In this document: one piece after another, positions 4,127 to 11,398 of the stretch
How positions within the stretch are numbered: position 1 is the first letter of the stretch
How the letters are laid out: every line of letters begins with the position of its first letter
Virus genome (UHGV): UHGV-0369625
Direction: 5' to 3' (one strand)
Length of the DNA: 14,057 bases
DNA from: a virus
Program-made: the position numbers and the translations under genes
Notes under the pieces: model-generated
Seen by the model: the letters and a program-made list of their open reading frames with translations, nothing else
Database searches by the model: none
What the model was told of the DNA's origin: nothing

Positions 4127-4406
4127 GAGATTGTGGTGCTTTTTGTGGGAGTCATCCACTTACGCACTTTGTTTTGCCATGCCAGCAGTTAGCTTCTGCT
4201 GTAAAACTATTCATGCAGCAAACCTGCACTTCACCACAATGGTTAGCATACTTTTCCTGATTAAGGTTTTGCCAAATATGCTGGCCATTGTTTCATGTAT
4301 TGGACCTCCTTATTTTTATTAAAGAGATCCAATATTCACTACTCTGTCCGTATCTCTACTCAGGCATCAGCCTTCTTCGTTATCGTATACAGACGAGCGA
4401 TGAATT

Positions 4407-4622
4407 TTAATCAGTAATGATGACATTTGCTGCTGCAGGACCTTTAGCACCACTCTCTATAGAGAAGGTAACCTTTTGACCTTCAAATAAGGTTCGATAA
4501 TTATCATTCTGAATCGCAGAAAAATGCACAAACACATCTTTACTACCATCAACAGGAGAAATAAAGCCGAAACCTTTATCAGCGTTAAACCATTTTACTA
4601 AACCAGTCATTTTATTTGACAT
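4407..4622 (-). CDS. cspB: Cold-shock protein CspB (CspA family), 71 aa
   Basis: [23 protein letters not shown]...; ATG 4620-4622 with AAGGAA SD; stop TAA 4407-4409. Confidence 0.95.
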
Positions 4623-4800
4623 TCTACATTCCTTAACTTGAGCCTTTCGGCATAAATGGTTTGCATAACAGAAACGACTTCGTACTTAATTGGAGAGACT
4701 CAAAGAAGGAATAAGTGAATAACACCTGAAATGAGAACTGCTTTAGTAAACTACTTCGTATATCGTCTGTTCTTCAAACCGACGCAATCATTAACGCATA
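4623..4800 (-). promoter_or_regulatory. cspB long 5' UTR with cold-box-like element (boundaries approximate)
   Basis: Minus-strand sequence near 4760-4795 (...GGTTTGAAGAACAGACG...) resembles the cspA cold box, and the block is shared with the cspI leader. Confidence 0.45.
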
Positions 4801-4922: not shown

Positions 4923-5135
4923 TTGTCCCGTAAAATGACAGGAATTGTCAAAACCTTTGACGGCAAAAGCGGCAAGGGTCTTATCACCCCATCCGATGGT
5001 CGTATCGATGTCCAGCTTCATGTTTCAGCGCTCAATCTCCGCGATGCAGAAGAAATTACCACCGGATTACGCGTGGAATTTTGCCGGATAAATGGTCTGC
5101 GTGGCCCTTCAGCTGCCAATGTTTACCTTTCATGA
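4923..5135 (+). CDS. cspF: CspA-family cold-shock-like protein CspF, 70 aa, TTG start
   Basis: Frame begins at TTG 4923 with TAAGGAA SD 7 nt upstream; the next ATG (4935) is too far from the SD. Transcribed divergently from cspB. Confidence 0.85.
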
Positions 5136-5556: not shown

Positions 5557-6309
5557 TTATCTCGTCACCTTCCTCAATTGCGCTTCCGCGTATGCTTCTT
5601 CCTGCCAGCACTTTGTTACCAGTTTACCAATGACGTCCGCATACCCCTTATACCACTGATAATCGGTCAGGTCTGGTACCAGCTTCTGGACATGACGTCG
5701 TGCCAGCGTGGTCGGTAAACGACTAAACCGGTTTCCATTACAACGCCCACAAATCTTATATACCGGTACGCCATGAAACCGGGTTCTTTTTTCATCCAGA
5801 ACAATCCCTTTACCCTTACACCCTCTGCACGCTGTGCTGACTTCGCCCTTACCATGGCAATGCTGACATAGTTCCTTCACCCATTCTTCCTTGATTACAG
5901 ATTCCCCGCGTCTGTAGTGTTTCACCACTTCGCGCAATACATTATAAAATCCCGTACCTGAACAATGCTCACAGCGAGCCTTACTTGCCGCAGACCTGGA
6001 GTAATCAGCAAAGGCAAAACTCACGAGGTAAGGAATAATCTGTAACCGGATTTCTTCACTCAATTTGTTCAATGTCGGGTTATCCAGTGCCATCGCGTAA
6101 TTTAGCAGGCCTTCAATCGCAAACTGAGGGTCCTGAACACCAACTTTTGCCAGAAATAAGGCCAACCCAAGTGGTGCTTTCGACTGCACCATCCCCTGCG
6201 CTGCCATTACATCCGTAATTGTTAAACAACCGGTGCCTGTCGCTGGAGCGTCATCGCTCAATTTTGGAGATTTTGGGGAGTAATATTTTGGTAAGGCTTC
6301 AAGGTTCAT
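5557..6309 (-). CDS. quuQ: Late-gene antiterminator Q (phage 82/21-type Q family), 250 aa
   Basis: ATG 6307-6309 with GGAG SD; the track start at 6339 is TTG. Cys/His-rich zinc-binding region (CEHCSGTG...CQHCHGKG...CRGCKGKG...CGRCNG). Matches Qin QuuQ as recalled. Confidence 0.9.
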   Translation of the reverse strand: MNLEALPKYYSPKSPKLSDDAPATGTGCLTITDVMAAQGMVQSKAPLGLALFLAKVGVQDPQFAIEGLLNYAMALDNPTLNKLSEEIRLQIIPYLVSFAFADYSRSAASKARCEHCSGTGFYNVLREVVKHYRRGESVIKEEWVKELCQHCHGKGEVSTACRGCKGKGIVLDEKRTRFHGVPVYKICGRCNGNRFSRLPTTLARRHVQKLVPDLTDYQWYKGYADVIGKLVTKCWQEEAYAEAQLRKVTR

Positions 6310-6322
6310 GCTCGTTCTCCAC

Positions 6323-7372
6323 TTACGCCAGTACGCCAATTGCCAGCGCGCGATCGATAAAACGAAATATCAGCTCCAGTTGGGAGCCATACTTCTCTTC
6401 AAATGCCACTGTATCCGTATGCAGCTCGTTGTGATGCTTTCTGCACAAAGGCAACACAAAGAGATCATGTGCTTTTGTTCCCATTCCGCCCTGCCCGTGA
6501 CCAATCAGATGATGCGGATCGTCGGCTGGCATACCGCAGCAAGCACACGGCTGTGTCTTAACCCAACGTGTGTATTTCTCCTTAACCCAGCGGCGACGTT
6601 TAGGCAGCTTCATGAAAGATTCCGGAGACTCTGGATCAACGGTGATGCTTACCACCGTCTTTTCCTGTGGTGGTTTTTGTTGCTGGTAGGCGTAAGGCAA
6701 CGGTGCAAGATTTTTTGTGCGTTGTTTCAATATGCTGGTGGCGGTCTGCTCTCCCGGTACGATGTCGCTTTCGCGGTACACCGAGCAGATTTTTTCCGCT
6801 GGTAATCCCAGCGAACGACGCGATACAGCCTCAGGTAGTGCATCCACCACCTGATTGCAGACCGCCCACCAGGATAATTCAGCCAAAGATAATTCCCGCT
6901 CCTGCGTACCGCTTATTGCGTGACGGATGACGTCAATCACCCATGCTGTCAGATTTTGTTGAGCAAGCAGATCCAGTGATTCCGATGTCTGGTCACGCAG
7001 TTGGTTGTCGCAGTGCCAACACAACACCATTGCGCCGGTACCATAACGGTGAATGACTGTTTCAGAGTGATGGTAATCGCCATTAGGCCACTGGCAGGAT
7101 GTAACATGACGTAATAGCCAGTCAGACAATGCGCCAACGCCGCCAGCAGCACGAATCACCCGTTCGTTACTAAAAAACGGCAGCAATGTTTTGTCTTCCA
7201 CCAGCGGCTGGCGAACGGCAGGAACGACTCCGGATGGCAGATTACGCATGCTTTTTGGTTCCGGTTCCACCAGCACTCGAGGATTATGAAATATCTGTAT
7301 GGATTCACGGCCCGGCTTAAGGACCACCAGCCCAAGCTCAGGCACCAGAACAGGTCTAAGTAATACCCGCAC
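6323..7372 (-). CDS. ydfU: DUF968-family prophage protein (YdfU-like) with C-terminal HNH-like motif, 349 aa
   Basis: GTG 7370-7372 preceded by GGAGG SD; the track start GTG 7411 has no SD. C-terminus CACCG...DPHHL...HH..ELH resembles a His-Me finger. Confidence 0.75.
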   Translation of the reverse strand: MRVLLRPVLVPELGLVVLKPGRESIQIFHNPRVLVEPEPKSMRNLPSGVVPAVRQPLVEDKTLLPFFSNERVIRAAGGVGALSDWLLRHVTSCQWPNGDYHHSETVIHRYGTGAMVLCWHCDNQLRDQTSESLDLLAQQNLTAWVIDVIRHAISGTQERELSLAELSWWAVCNQVVDALPEAVSRRSLGLPAEKICSVYRESDIVPGEQTATSILKQRTKNLAPLPYAYQQQKPPQEKTVVSITVDPESPESFMKLPKRRRWVKEKYTRWVKTQPCACCGMPADDPHHLIGHGQGGMGTKAHDLFVLPLCRKHHNELHTDTVAFEEKYGSQLELIFRFIDRALAIGVLA

Positions 7373-7373
7373 G

Positions 7374-7652
7374 TTACCTCCAGATCCGTTGCTGGAAAGT
7401 GCGGGACGCACGTGGTGGGCGTTCGGAGTAAGGCAATCTGACTGAGATTATCCAGTGACGGTAGTCGAGGCTAAGGGCTTTCTTAACCTCGTATCCGCGC
7501 CTGCGGTAACACTGAATTATCCATTCAGCCTGCTCTTCAGTGCATGGAGGGTGTTGGAACCATTCAGACTTGAATGCGTGAGAATACCGCTCGTGCGTGC
7601 AGACAAGAACGGGCGAATTATCAGAATTGTAATATTTTACGTTGCGTGCCAT
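7374..7652 (-). CDS. Hypothetical protein, 92 aa; stop abuts the ydfU start
   Basis: ATG 7650-7652 with GGAGAA SD; stop TAA 7374-7376 is 1 nt from the ydfU GTG. No family recognised. Confidence 0.65.
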   Translation of the reverse strand: MARNVKYYNSDNSPVLVCTHERYSHAFKSEWFQHPPCTEEQAEWIIQCYRRRGYEVKKALSLDYRHWIISVRLPYSERPPRASRTFQQRIWR

Positions 7653-8085: not shown

Positions 8086-8118
8086 GAAAATAAAAACAAA
8101 AACCCGCCGAAGCGGGTT
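8086..8118 (-). terminator. Rho-independent terminator downstream of hok (stem AACCCGC, loop CGAA, stem GCGGGTT), T-run on the minus strand
   Basis: Plus strand reads aataaaaacaaaaaAACCCGCcgaaGCGGGTTaag; about 70 nt downstream of the hok stop. Confidence 0.7.
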
Positions 8119-8186
8119 AAGTGCGGGTGCGTTGAGGATGCCTGTCACATCAGAGGTGGCGAGGGATTTCTCCCTCGCCGGGTCTC

Positions 8187-8342
8187 TTACTCCTCAGGTT
8201 CGTAAGCTGTGAAGACAGCGACCTCCGTCTGGCCGGTTCGGATTCGTACCTCGCAGAGGTCTTTCCTCGTTACCAGTGCCGTCACAATGACGGTTAAACA
8301 GATGACGATCAGGGCGATTAACATCGCCTTTTGCTGCTTCAT
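8187..8342 (-). CDS. hokD: Hok/Gef-family type I toxin, 51 aa (MKQQKAMLIALIVICLTVIVTALVTRKDLCEVRIRTGQTEVAVFTAYEPEE)
   Basis: ATG 8340-8342 with AGGAGAA SD. Single TM helix plus the conserved Hok C-terminus; matches HokD/RelF as recalled. The track ORF extends 19 codons upstream to ATG 8399. No relB/relE upstream. Confidence 0.85.
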   Translation of the reverse strand: MKQQKAMLIALIVICLTVIVTALVTRKDLCEVRIRTGQTEVAVFTAYEPEE

Positions 8343-8578
8343 AGCCTGCTTCTCCTTGCCTTTCGGCACGTAAGAGGCTAACCTAGATTTGCCGTTCATA
8401 GATTGAGCCTCAGATTAATGTTAAGCGTCTTGCAGGACGCGTAATGTTAACTGGGGCTTTTCTCTATCTGCCTTTGGTGTTCATGCCTGAGACAGATAGC
8501 CTCAAGCACCCGCAGCCATTCTACTTAACTCCCGTTACCTCGCCAATATAAAATCAATCAGAAAGGTGATCCATAAAA

Positions 8579-9265
8579 TCACTCCTTCTCTTCTTTTCCG
8601 TAGTGGAGTTGGCCAATTTTGATAAGAGGGCGTCCCTGAGATTTGCGGTGTAGATTGGTATCGCGCAGAGAATACACACAGCCACAATATTCCTGCTGAT
8701 AGAATTTTTCGCGCTTGCTGATTTCAATCATACGGGACGAGCCGCCCTGCTTGCGCCAGTTATAATCCCAGTACACCATACCCGGATAATGCGCAACAGC
8801 TCGCCGCCCACACTCGTTAACCTGCTGCATATTTTTCCAGCGTGAAATGCCCAGTGAACTGCTGATCACACTGAAACCATTTTCAGCAGCGTACAACGCT
8901 GTCCGCTCAAAACGCATGTCAAAACACATGGTACAACGGATCCCCCTCTCAGGCTCCCATTCCATTCCTTTGGCACGTTCAAACCAGTTGTCTGTGTCGT
9001 AATCAGCATCAATAAATGGCACGCCGTGTTGTTCAGCAAAGCGAATATTTTCATCCTTACGAATTAAATACTCTTTCTGAGGATGAATGTTCGGGTTGTA
9101 GAAAAAGATGGTATAGTCGATTCCCGAGGCCTGAAGCGCCTCCATCACTTCACCGGAACATGGAGCACAGCAAGAGTGCAGTAGTAGTTTGTTTGCCCCG
9201 TTTGGGAGCTCCAATTTAGGCCGTTTGAAATCAGCAATAGTCATAAATATTTTTATTGGGGTCAT
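8579..9265 (-). CDS. QueH-like epoxyqueuosine reductase (DUF208 family), 228 aa
   Basis: Motifs [29 protein letters not shown] and EYCGCVYSL match what I recall as QueH hallmarks. ATG 9263-9265 (no clear SD); alternative ATG 9244. Stop TGA 8579-8581. Confidence 0.75.
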
Positions 9266-9418
9266 GAAAATAGCACAGAGTGTAGCATCAGAGCAGGTCT
9301 ATCGGGAATATATGTCTAAATCTGGTAATATCTGGTTTTGACGCAAAGCGGACAACCACGCTGGCTCTACCCTGCGCCATGAAAATGTCAATTCACATCT
9401 GAACTAATGCTCTTTAAT

Positions 9419-9844
9419 CTAGTAACGTCTAAAATACCTAACATTTCCTTGATAAAATGCCAGTACACGCTGCATAGCTTCGCTCTTCCGGCACTCGCGA
9501 CAGATTATATTCAGGCGCCTGTCGTAGCGGCGTATTTCGCCGTCTGGTAACGACCAGATAAGGTCCGGATCAACCACTGCAGGTTTCTTCACCTTTGCCC
9601 TTGAGAGTTTTTTGCGAGCATTTTGCCAGTCCTTACGCGCCTGTTCAGACGGGAATAACCCGTAACCAGAGTTGTATACATCGCCACTGGCAACCAGCTC
9701 TCTGGCGAGAACACTCATCAGATATCTTGTCGCACCTGTCCTGGCTTCCAGTTGCCGCAACGTCTCGCGACCGCTCAGACGTACAAGTTCAACAACCTGC
9801 CCTTTAATTTTTTCCCGCTCTTCTTGTGTAAATACTTTTGCCAT
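9419..9844 (-). CDS. Hypothetical basic protein, 141 aa, translationally coupled to the upstream DUF1627-like gene
   Basis: ATG 9842-9844 with GGAGG SD; the track start at 9859 is TTG. Lys/Arg-rich; ends ...CRECRK.... No family recognised. Confidence 0.65.
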   Translation of the reverse strand: MAKVFTQEEREKIKGQVVELVRLSGRETLRQLEARTGATRYLMSVLARELVASGDVYNSGYGLFPSEQARKDWQNARKKLSRAKVKKPAVVDPDLIWSLPDGEIRRYDRRLNIICRECRKSEAMQRVLAFYQGNVRYFRRY

Positions 9845-9859
9845 AAGCGCCTCCGGCAA

Positions 9860-10630
9860 TCACTTTTCCGATACAACACGGCGGGAAGAATCAGTAATCT
9901 GTCGAACAATATCCCGGTGCTTGTTCAGCTCCCGCAGCGCGGCGCAGACTCGCTCCCACTTCTGAACATCACTTTTCGCCCTGCGCAGCGCCAGGTTTGC
10001 CCTGCGAAGGGACGGAAAAATCAGCTCATCTGCTTGCGTTTCGGTAAACGATGGCAACGGCTGCACAATGTCCGCCACAGTTTCTGTTTTAATTTCTTCC
10101 TGTGTTGCGGCTTCCCGGACTGGTAACGCAGCACCTGCTGGCTGAGGAAAGGCCTTACCATCACTTTCCGTTACCAGCGCGGCTTTCGGCTCTGCTGGTA
10201 AATTATCGCCCGGCATGCAGTAACGAAATTTACCGTTCTGATTAACGCGTGCCAGCCGCCCCGTTGCGGTTACCACCGCCAGCGTGGAAGCAACCTTGCG
10301 AGTACTGACACCGAACTTACCCGCCAGTTCCTCACACGTTTTAGCCCCATCCTGACCGATAAACTCAATCATCATGTCTGCGGTAACTTTTTGTTCGACC
10401 TCCCCGGTCAGCATATCCTGTGCTTCAGATTTTACTGGCCGCTCTTCGGTTACCCGGGATTCACCTTCGCCAGCCAGAAACCAGGTGTGACCAGTTTTAT
10501 CAACGACGCCTTTTCTTTTGAGTTCCCACAGCTCGTTGACAGCCTCTTCACGACTGATTCCAAGGCGAGCTGCCACCACATGTGAAGAGGCTTTTTTCAG
10601 TGCTTTCAGTGCGTCAGATACGGTTTCCAT
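9860..10630 (-). CDS. Prophage protein with N-terminal winged-helix-like domain (DUF1627-like), 256 aa
   Basis: ATG 10628-10630 with GGAGGAAA SD; begins 21 nt after the DnaC-like stop. Family assignment from recall. Confidence 0.75.
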   Translation of the reverse strand: METVSDALKALKKASSHVVAARLGISREEAVNELWELKRKGVVDKTGHTWFLAGEGESRVTEERPVKSEAQDMLTGEVEQKVTADMMIEFIGQDGAKTCEELAGKFGVSTRKVASTLAVVTATGRLARVNQNGKFRYCMPGDNLPAEPKAALVTESDGKAFPQPAGAALPVREAATQEEIKTETVADIVQPLPSFTETQADELIFPSLRRANLALRRAKSDVQKWERVCAALRELNKHRDIVRQITDSSRRVVSEK

Positions 10631-10651
10631 TAAAATTTCCTCCGGACAAAA

Positions 10652-11398
10652 TTACTTCACAACCCTCATATTGCTGACATTTGGACGCCAGCTATCCCAG
10701 TTAAACGTCACCCATCGACCACCGTTCATGGTCATGCGGTCCATAATCCTCTCACCAAGAAGCGTACTCATTGCGGCATGATTCAGGTTTGTTAACATCC
10801 CGACACTGCACAGTGATGCTGTCCGGCGATCAATTATCTGGTGCAATACCACCTGCTCGTTTTTCGTCTCCCGCTGAACGCCTATTTCATCCAGGACCAG
10901 CAAATCAACCCCGCAAAGCTCCTGTAAAAATTTTTCCCCGGATTTGCCGTTGTCGTAGCTGTCATGCAACACGCTCATGACGTCAGACACGGTGACGATA
11001 ATCACGCTGCGCCCCTTCACCATCAGCCGGTTGCCCATCGCCGCTGCAAGGTGATTTTTCCCGGTGCCGGTTTTACCGCTGAACACAAAATTCGTGCACC
11101 CGGTCATCAGTTCGTCAGCTATGGATTTGGCCTGGCTCAGCGCGTATTTTTGCCCGTCGTTCTGCACCTGATAATTTGCAAACGAGCATTTGCTGTGCAG
11201 AGGCTGGATGCCCGAACGATTCAGGATTTTTTCCACCCGCAACTGGCGATTCTGGCGGTTAATCTCCTCGCTGCGTTTTCGTCCTTCAGCAAGTTGCCAT
11301 TCCCGCCACTCCTCCACCGTCCGGTACGGTGGAACCGACCCCTGTGGTGCAAGTCTGCGAATACGTTCAAGAACCCCAACTGCCGCAATGTTTTTCAT
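10652..11398 (-). CDS. DnaC/IstB-family AAA+ helicase loader (lambda P analogue; YdaV-like), 248 aa
   Basis: Walker A GKTGTGKNHLAAA and Walker B DLLVLDEIG; ATG 11396-11398 lies 7 nt after the O-like stop. Confidence 0.9.
   Translation of the reverse strand: MKNIAAVGVLERIRRLAPQGSVPPYRTVEEWREWQLAEGRKRSEEINRQNRQLRVEKILNRSGIQPLHSKCSFANYQVQNDGQKYALSQAKSIADELMTGCTNFVFSGKTGTGKNHLAAAMGNRLMVKGRSVIIVTVSDVMSVLHDSYDNGKSGEKFLQELCGVDLLVLDEIGVQRETKNEQVVLHQIIDRRTASLCSVGMLTNLNHAAMSTLLGERIMDRMTMNGGRWVTFNWDSWRPNVSNMRVVK

Follow-up and report, generated by a model that had tools for sequence, protein, structure and literature searches.

Reduction of epoxyqueuosine (oQ) to queuosine (Q) at position 34 of tRNA is catalyzed both by the cobalamin-dependent QueG (PMC5175355) and by QueH. 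The two enzymes are non-homologous, and QueG of Escherichia coli (b4166), which employs cobalamin and a [4Fe-4S] cluster, is the product of a core chromosomal gene, in contrast to the queH gene considered here, which is mobile cargo. This queH lies in a stretch of viral DNA of 14,057 nucleotides (UHGV virus genome UHGV-0369625; hereafter the window). By sequence, invariant residues and fold, its product is a bona fide QueH, and we consider it probable that it is a functional, cobalamin (B12)-independent enzyme of housekeeping origin that was captured by a phage together with a -10 element and is carried as lysogenic cargo, giving a B12-independent route to Q-tRNA. Like queH in the window, the genes of the described phage 7-deazaguanine clusters (DpdA with FolE, QueC, QueD and QueE, with or without QueF, ArcS or Gat-QueC; Hutinet et al. 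2019) are phage-borne genes of the queuosine/archaeosine pathways. Hutinet et al. 2019 reported no QueA, QueG or QueH homologues in the viruses that they analyzed (PMC6884629), which agrees with the initial annotation of the window, where it was stated that the known phage 7-deazaguanine gene sets do not include QueH.

Family membership, conserved residues and predicted fold

The sole Pfam match of the window protein is PF02677 (QueH, also known as DUF208 and COG1636), at E = 1.1e-65 and 221.5 bits compared with a cutoff of 23.5 bits; the match covers positions 1-174 of the 175 in the profile, i.e. its full length, and Pfam returned QueH alone, with no QueG/reductive-dehalogenase-type domain. 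A PDB sequence search matched Thermotoga maritima QueH (7lc5) at E = 7.8e-22, and these matches greatly exceed what would be expected by chance. A profile search against NCBIfam gave no matching model, and thus the name QueH assigned by the Prokaryotic Genome Annotation Pipeline (PGAP) does not come from an NCBIfam hidden Markov model. With respect to PHROGs, the sole match is phrog_3217, labelled 'unknown function', the profile of which begins at residue 41; members of phrog_3217 have probably been called from an internal Met, without the CCAPC motif.

The gene was first called as an open reading frame (ORF) at 8579-9265 on the minus strand, encoding 228 residues. This ORF exists, and all the motifs quoted from it in the initial annotation, including EYCGC, are present, but the true start is probably Met8 (ATG at 9244), giving a coding sequence at 8579-9244 (minus strand) and a protein of 221 residues, to which the Pfam match, the invariant cysteines, the AlphaFold2 model and the substitution rates reported here apply. 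The comparison of alleles argues for Met8, because in the Rac-type alleles (L011 and L015) the first ATG is replaced by ATT and then followed by an in-frame stop, Providencia queH has stops within the codons upstream of the Met8 equivalent, and both Erwinia queH and the PGAP model WP_000150294.1 begin at the Met8 equivalent.

An exhaustive HMMER search for QueH relatives yielded 4,774 matches at E ≤ 0.001. In an alignment of 32 sequences, comprising window QueH and 31 diverse representatives (36-73% identity), 18 columns are invariant, all 18 of which are retained by window QueH. They include seven cysteines (C25, C26, C29, C104, C107, C187 and C189, in the 221-residue numbering) as well as N52, E58, Y59, R62, E99, R103, R111, K137, Q184, G188 and S192; the same invariant set was recovered in a second QueH alignment, of 24 sequences, and the CCxPC, RCxxC and YCGC motifs are all present. 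An AlphaFold2 model of window QueH, made from the 24-sequence alignment, has a mean predicted local distance difference test score of 94.7 and a predicted template modelling (TM) score of 0.90. The best PDB matches of the model by Foldseek are five T. maritima QueH entries, with root mean square deviations (rmsd) of 1.2-1.7 Å and target-normalized TM scores of 0.90-0.92, the closest of them having rmsd values of 1.2-1.3 Å over about 179 columns and a TM score of 0.92; the next matches, i.e. TtuA and other PP-loop-type enzymes, score below 0.55. The predicted structure is thus of the adenine-nucleotide-alpha-hydrolase-like type and superimposable on solved QueH. Profile and structure matches hence bear out the assignment to QueH/DUF208, which had been made from motifs.

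T. maritima QueH (PDB 7LC5, 7LC7 and 9DEU; mutants 9D86, C9S, and 9DCO, D13N) belongs to the same Pfam family and is 30% identical to window QueH over about 179 aligned columns, with the cysteines of the CC..., CxxC and CGC motifs aligning. T. maritima C9 and D13, which the deposited C9S and D13N mutants mark as mechanistically interesting residues, align with C25 and C29 in the window protein. Position 13 is therefore an Asp in T. maritima QueH but a Cys (in CCAPC) in window QueH, a difference that does not represent a loss because Cys is the consensus of the family and occupies this position in all 32 aligned members; the conserved residues, for which the initial annotation had proposed an alignment check, are all in place. 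Window QueH is longer than the T. maritima enzyme by about 16 residues at the N terminus and by 25 at the C terminus, the latter including a basic tail that other proteobacterial QueH proteins also have.

Distribution, retention and origin of mobile queH

By megablast, queH was found in 995 of 5,426 complete E. coli genomes (~18%), nearly always on the chromosome, with at least 80% of the gene being covered in 985 of the 995. The RefSeq name for the gene is 'epoxyqueuosine reductase QueH', and the exact 221-residue protein occurs on at least 1,000 contigs as 'MULTISPECIES: epoxyqueuosine reductase QueH [Enterobacteriaceae]'. The gene encodes a typical QueH that is correctly named in RefSeq and UniRef, and, with the gene so frequent in E. 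coli, the suggestion in the initial annotation that its placement is unusual appears overstated. The same annotation foresaw that the gene might prove to be a common, already characterized prophage gene; common and annotated it is, but no experimental characterization was found, and no paper on this gene was found in the literature that was searchable.

Carriers include sequence type 131, O157:H7, O104:H4, O111 and avian pathogenic E. coli strains. They also include laboratory lineages, i.e. E. coli B (REL606, NC_012967.1 1620086-1621336; ATCC 11303; the B-ZidR record, L010 8990-9655), E. coli C (NZ_CP029371.1) and ATCC 8739 (Crooks); BL21(DE3) is not among the queH matches listed. REL606 is the ancestor of the long-term evolution experiment, and in these laboratory lineages queH is intact inside a defective prophage. 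With queG present in every one of the 5,426 genomes, QueH is never the sole reductase in this species and co-occurs with QueG in each QueH-positive E. coli. The statement that enterobacteria normally use QueG is correct with respect to E. coli but too broad for the whole order, with chromosomal queH being present in Enterobacter, Kluyvera, Scandinavium, Erwinia, Providencia, Photorhabdus, Serratia and Dickeya.

The sole deposited phage genome with queH is that of the temperate Escherichia phage HannyBb (L002 9001-9687), in which the gene is annotated as hypothetical and, as in the window, is flanked by the replication genes and a Mok/Hok gene. A QueH is encoded by about 215 viral contigs of IMG/VR, and a second scan of this collection, led by a distant QueH in order to reveal other phage groups, returned the enterobacterial lambdoid loci again. 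The carriage of QueH by one widespread lambdoid prophage lineage and by the isolated phage HannyBb adds to the published statement of its absence from viruses (PMC6884629). Two non-E. coli viral matches (L099 and L107) appear to be chromosomal sequence flanking predicted prophages and were not counted as phage-borne. QueH homologues of 32-78% identity also occur in the unannotated records OR844989.1, OR848462.1, OR846867.1, CAKLQH020000001.1 and MT83xxxx, labelled 'Staphylococcus phage' (282 kb), 'Listeria phage', 'Acinetobacter phage MD-2021a' (328-379 kb) and short 'Bacteriophage sp.' contigs from human faeces; the size of these records and their missing annotation suggest that they are bacterial DNA or contamination.

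A further set of copies is located on IncF conjugative plasmids, of Klebsiella pneumoniae (11 records, 84% nucleotide identity; e.g. L248 6988-7656, on an IncFIB/IncFII plasmid) and of Salmonella (one record, 91% nucleotide identity; L249 6992-7660, on an IncFII plasmid), where the neighbours of queH are TonB-like fragments and fec iron-dicitrate transport genes. These plasmids represent a second, independent mobilization route into QueG-type species; mobile queH occurs in E. coli and E. albertii through a single lambdoid prophage lineage and in Klebsiella and Salmonella on IncF plasmids.

Pairwise comparison of eight distinct E. coli prophage alleles gave ratios of nonsynonymous to synonymous substitution rates (dN/dS) of 0.05-0.09, at dS values of up to 0.5, i.e. 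the prophage alleles are under strong purifying selection. All 62 of the non-redundant viral-contig copies are intact with all seven cysteines kept, and the 30 nucleotide alleles among the viral-contig copies reduce to 14 protein alleles. The gene is intact in the degraded E. coli B prophage, the integrase of which is frameshifted and the tail genes of which are truncated, as well as in the defective prophage of strain F11, and such preservation in decayed prophages points to selection at the level of the host. These observations bear on the proposal that queH is a redundant passenger, i.e. that it encodes a working QueH with no measurable effect, QueG and environmental corrinoids being sufficient, and hitch-hikes with successful prophages. 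The universal presence of queG in E. coli, the location of queH adjoining an interchangeable cargo slot (occupied by hok, restriction-modification (R-M) or Kiwa genes) and the apparent loss of queH from the K-12 Qin prophage, with no known consequence, are all in accord with this proposal. We nevertheless consider it unlikely, given the low dN/dS values at substantial dS, the intactness of every viral-contig copy, the retention of queH in decayed prophages, where neutral passengers normally decay, and its independent acquisition on the Klebsiella and Salmonella plasmids.

The nearest non-phage relatives of window QueH are the proteins of Scandinavium (92% amino acid identity), Kluyvera (91%) and Enterobacter (88-90%), followed by the chromosomal QueH proteins of Erwinia, Providencia, Photorhabdus, Serratia and Dickeya (79-86%); even in Sphingomonas, Pseudomonas and Stenotrophomonas the amino acid identity is 75-80%. 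The chromosomal surroundings examined are ordinary ones, being mnmA-nudJ-rluE-icd-chorismate mutase-queH in Enterobacter, dehydrogenase genes and an Hcp gene in Scandinavium, purL-queH-glrK-glrR-glnB-hmp-glyA in Erwinia, tmcA-DUF441-queH in Providencia and benE-queH in Photorhabdus. The GC content of queH (0.45-0.48, compared with 0.50-0.54 for its neighbours) was considered as evidence of a foreign origin and rejected as insufficiently distinctive. In Enterobacter sp. ECC-175 (L172 1-6500), icd precedes queH by about 1 kb; icd is where lambdoid elements, e14 and phage 21 among them, integrate. The proximity of icd hints at capture by aberrant excision, although such an event in its simple form would not account for the internal position that queH occupies within the prophage.

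Expression signals and proposed role

The initial annotation placed the gene between replication genes and a hok toxin gene, with an upstream intergenic region of about 150 bp; Pfam matches of the neighbours support this arrangement, and the gap upstream of the 228-residue ORF is 153 bp (9266-9418). A putative extended -10 element, TGcTACACT, is located at 9279-9287 on the minus strand, 34 nt upstream of the Met8 ATG, within a block of about 115 bp (9245-9360, minus strand) that travels with queH and is common to alleles with different sequence further upstream. This block is found both in the Qin-type alleles (the window, L001, L014 and L017) and in the HannyBb/E. coli B-type alleles (L002, L010 and L012), beyond which the end of the DUF977 gene or a methyltransferase fragment follows, depending on the allele type. 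CTGATGCTACAC is kept in all the E. coli alleles, including the Rac-type, whatever the upstream neighbour, and TGCTACACT is present upstream of chromosomal Erwinia queH; the ATG of these chromosomal genes is preceded, at a distance of 31-32 nt, by a -10-like hexamer, which is TACACT in Erwinia, TATACT in Providencia and TATAAT in Photorhabdus. The conservation of this region suggests that queH was captured together with its native promoter, from which it may be expressed in the lysogen.

The proposed sequence of events is that a chromosomal queH of the Enterobacteriaceae would have been captured, with its own -10 element, by a lambdoid lineage (Qin/Rac-type, with the DUF977 module), and would since have been carried as lysogenic-conversion cargo. 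In the lysogen, the Tgt and QueA of the host would provide tRNA-Asp, -Asn, -His and -Tyr with oQ at position 34, and QueH would then reduce the oQ epoxide, giving queuosine, by means of a [4Fe-4S] cluster with an iron beside it, bound by the conserved cysteines. E. coli does not synthesize B12 de novo; in E. coli with QueG, QueH would thus free the last step of Q-tRNA synthesis from the cobalamin supply. Zallot et al. 2017 reportedly restored Q to a queG mutant of E. coli by means of queH genes, and the same authors are said to have noted the co-occurrence of QueG and QueH in Acinetobacter baylyi; in the literature such co-occurrence is also documented for some streptococci. Retuned decoding of NAU/NAC codons under B12 scarcity, as raised in the initial annotation, would be a plausible consequence, where the relevant contrast is that between oQ and Q rather than that between G and Q.

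Several points weigh against this proposal. A scan for consensus promoters and terminators gave no sigma-70 site upstream of queH and no terminator on either side, and queH could be read by read-through from the pR early-right operon. With gut corrinoids available, QueG may usually be sufficient, and we know of no established difference in decoding between oQ-tRNA and Q-tRNA. A literature search for the activity, expression or phenotype of prophage queH found nothing, and the QueH family is too conserved for the donor lineage to be traced precisely.

With respect to timing, QueH might instead be mainly a delayed-early product of pR, made after induction or infection and completing Q-tRNA for the translation of late genes. 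queH is co-oriented with cro, O, the DnaC-like gene, the DUF977 gene and Q, with no predicted terminator between the DUF977 gene and queH, and its occurrence at the same position in an isolated temperate phage, HannyBb, is consistent with such a role. That this is its principal function appears distinctly improbable, however, because queH is intact in prophages that are incapable of lytic growth, because the -10 element is common to the chromosomal copies and because tRNA turnover is presumably slow compared with the lytic cycle. A contribution of this type is compatible with the carriage of queH as lysogenic cargo, which we regard as the best explanation.

The signs of selection, together with the carriage of queH on plasmids in QueG-type species, suggest that cobalamin independence at the last step of Q synthesis is worth something to the cell. 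What remains of interest at this locus is that mobile elements bring queH into QueG-type species, which implies differences between strains: the tRNA oQ/Q content of REL606, ATCC 11303, E. coli C and ATCC 8739 grown without B12 may differ from that of K-12, which, if so, is of importance for studies on tRNA modification and translation, and any functional difference between oQ and Q would become experimentally approachable. More generally, it is conceivable, albeit as a tentative extension of these results, that QueG-only Enterobacteriaceae repeatedly acquire a B12-independent oQ reductase through mobile elements, such that the oQ/Q state of four tRNAs is a horizontally acquired trait, variable between strains and of consequence in cobalamin-poor niches. 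If this is correct, translation, fitness or the yield of phage would be affected in niches such as urine, blood or aerobic environments, queH would represent the first demonstrated case of a tRNA-level queuosine gene acting as phage cargo, and the comparison of REL606, E. coli C or ATCC 8739 with K-12 would provide a natural handle on the functions of oQ and Q.

Prophage context and relation to known systems

Its gene content identifies the element as a lambdoid prophage of the Qin/Rac type, the early-right and late genes of which are encoded by the minus strand. The Pfam and Rfam matches give the order, before queH, of repressor and Cro-like genes, YdaT, an O-like helix-turn-helix protein, a DnaC/IstB-like ATPase, DUF1627 and DUF977, and, after queH, of mokD/hokD with a sok match, Rem, DUF968/HNH, antiterminator Q and the late genes. 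The DUF977 gene (9419-9859, minus strand; Pfam DUF977, 9e-28) is the upstream neighbour of queH and the last gene of the replication module. On the other side, the mokD/hokD type I toxin gene (8187-8399, minus strand; hokD proper, 8187-8342) matches Pfam HOK_GEF at 3e-23, the same toxin gene being annotated as hokD in homologous loci; a sok-family match (RF01794, 110 bits compared with a gathering score of 59) covers the hok leader/antitoxin region at 8337-8511 (minus strand), and the promoter scan gave a hok promoter-like site, TTGGCG-17-TAGAAT, at 8546-8518 (minus strand). The DUF968 and antiterminator Q ORFs, at 6323-7411 and 5557-6339 on the minus strand, overlap by 17 nt; the C terminus of the DUF968 protein is HNH-nuclease-like, and antiterminator Q has a zinc-finger region of the DnaJ-type CXXCXGXG. 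The late genes comprise cspF/cspB-like genes with cspA-type 5' untranslated regions (UTRs), a P21-type holin gene, DUF1327, a lysozyme gene and an Rz-like gene. Within this region, two Rfam cspA thermoregulator 5' UTRs are located at 1496-1881 and 4391-4783 on the minus strand, and there are three cold-shock ORFs (cspI/cspB/cspF-like) at 1523-1735, 4407-4622 and 4923-5135.

When the window was compared with the complete E. coli genomes, none matched it end to end, the best match having 81% coverage at 97.4% identity. The E. albertii type strain NBRC 107761 (L168) carries the same DUF1627-DUF977-queH-hokD module, with 98% identity over 8097-10652 of the window and an identical QueH. The source of the window may therefore be a mosaic prophage that the RefSeq complete-genome set does not contain.

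In a survey of about 149 viral-contig loci, many of them redundant, a DUF977 gene lies upstream of queH in nearly all, as it does in all the annotated E. coli loci examined, whereas the downstream gene varies, being hokD in about 107 loci, a C5-methyltransferase with an NgoMIV-type restriction enzyme in 27, Kiwa KwaA/KwaB in three and DUF1971 in one. Thus, in O157:H7 (Z1723; L017 3806-5816) the R-M pair is directly 3' of queH, in strain WCHEC4533 (L014 4153-5792) queH is followed by Kiwa KwaA/KwaB and then by ydfW-flxA-ydfV-relBE-hokD, and in Rac-type prophages (L011 5037-5375) a DUF1971 gene is located downstream. Because the downstream cargo varies while queH stays fixed, queH does not belong to a system inherited together with that cargo; it is constant, bordering a slot in which the cargo is exchanged. 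At the upstream junction, the HannyBb/E. coli B-type alleles have a truncated DNA methyltransferase fragment between the DUF977 gene and queH (L002 8762-8968, L010 9757-9942 and L012 6768-6953), which marks an earlier cargo replacement. The order queH-Kiwa-ISNCY-ydfW-flxA-ydfV-relB-relE-hokD-rem in WCHEC4533 (L014 1-6666) corresponds to the right-hand part of K-12 Qin, which suggests that K-12 Qin is a deletion derivative without queH and the replication module.

The presence of NgoMIV-type R-M, Kiwa and hok/sok genes in this slot, and the use of 7-deazaguanines in DNA by phages (PMC6884629), might be taken to imply a different substrate or role for QueH, in DNA modification or in a defence/anti-defence module with its neighbours, but either is very improbable, as the window protein is 88-92% identical to chromosomal housekeeping QueH proteins and keeps every invariant residue, no DpdA/Tgt-like, QueC/D/E or FolE gene was found by Pfam among the 20 window ORFs scanned or is annotated in homologous prophages, PADLOC (E ≤ 0.01) gave no match for QueH, DUF977, Hok, Rem or DUF968, and the cargo changes while queH remains constant. 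Both roles were rejected on these grounds. The DUF1627 protein gave two weak PADLOC matches only, to CARF and Csa3.

The chromosomal QueH proteins of the Enterobacterales are of near-identical length and have all the invariant residues, and their genes have a -10-like element about 31-34 nt before the ATG, as in the window; those genes, however, are located among housekeeping genes, whereas the window copy lies in a lambdoid prophage of a QueG-bearing species. The 7-deazaguanine clusters of phages put preQ0-derived bases into DNA, in contrast to the window, which has a lone tRNA-level finishing enzyme without those partners. In terms of genome organization, window queH resembles the morons of lambdoid phages, as found between the replication genes and Q (the nin-like region). 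Like these, queH is a single non-phage gene between conserved phage modules (DUF977 on one side and hok/DUF968/Q on the other), is present in some relatives only, is flanked by swappable cargo (hok/sok, R-M or Kiwa) and is kept in defective prophages; with respect to the dedicated promoter and terminator of morons and to their transcription in the repressed prophage, a conserved -10-like element that may belong to a promoter is seen at window queH.

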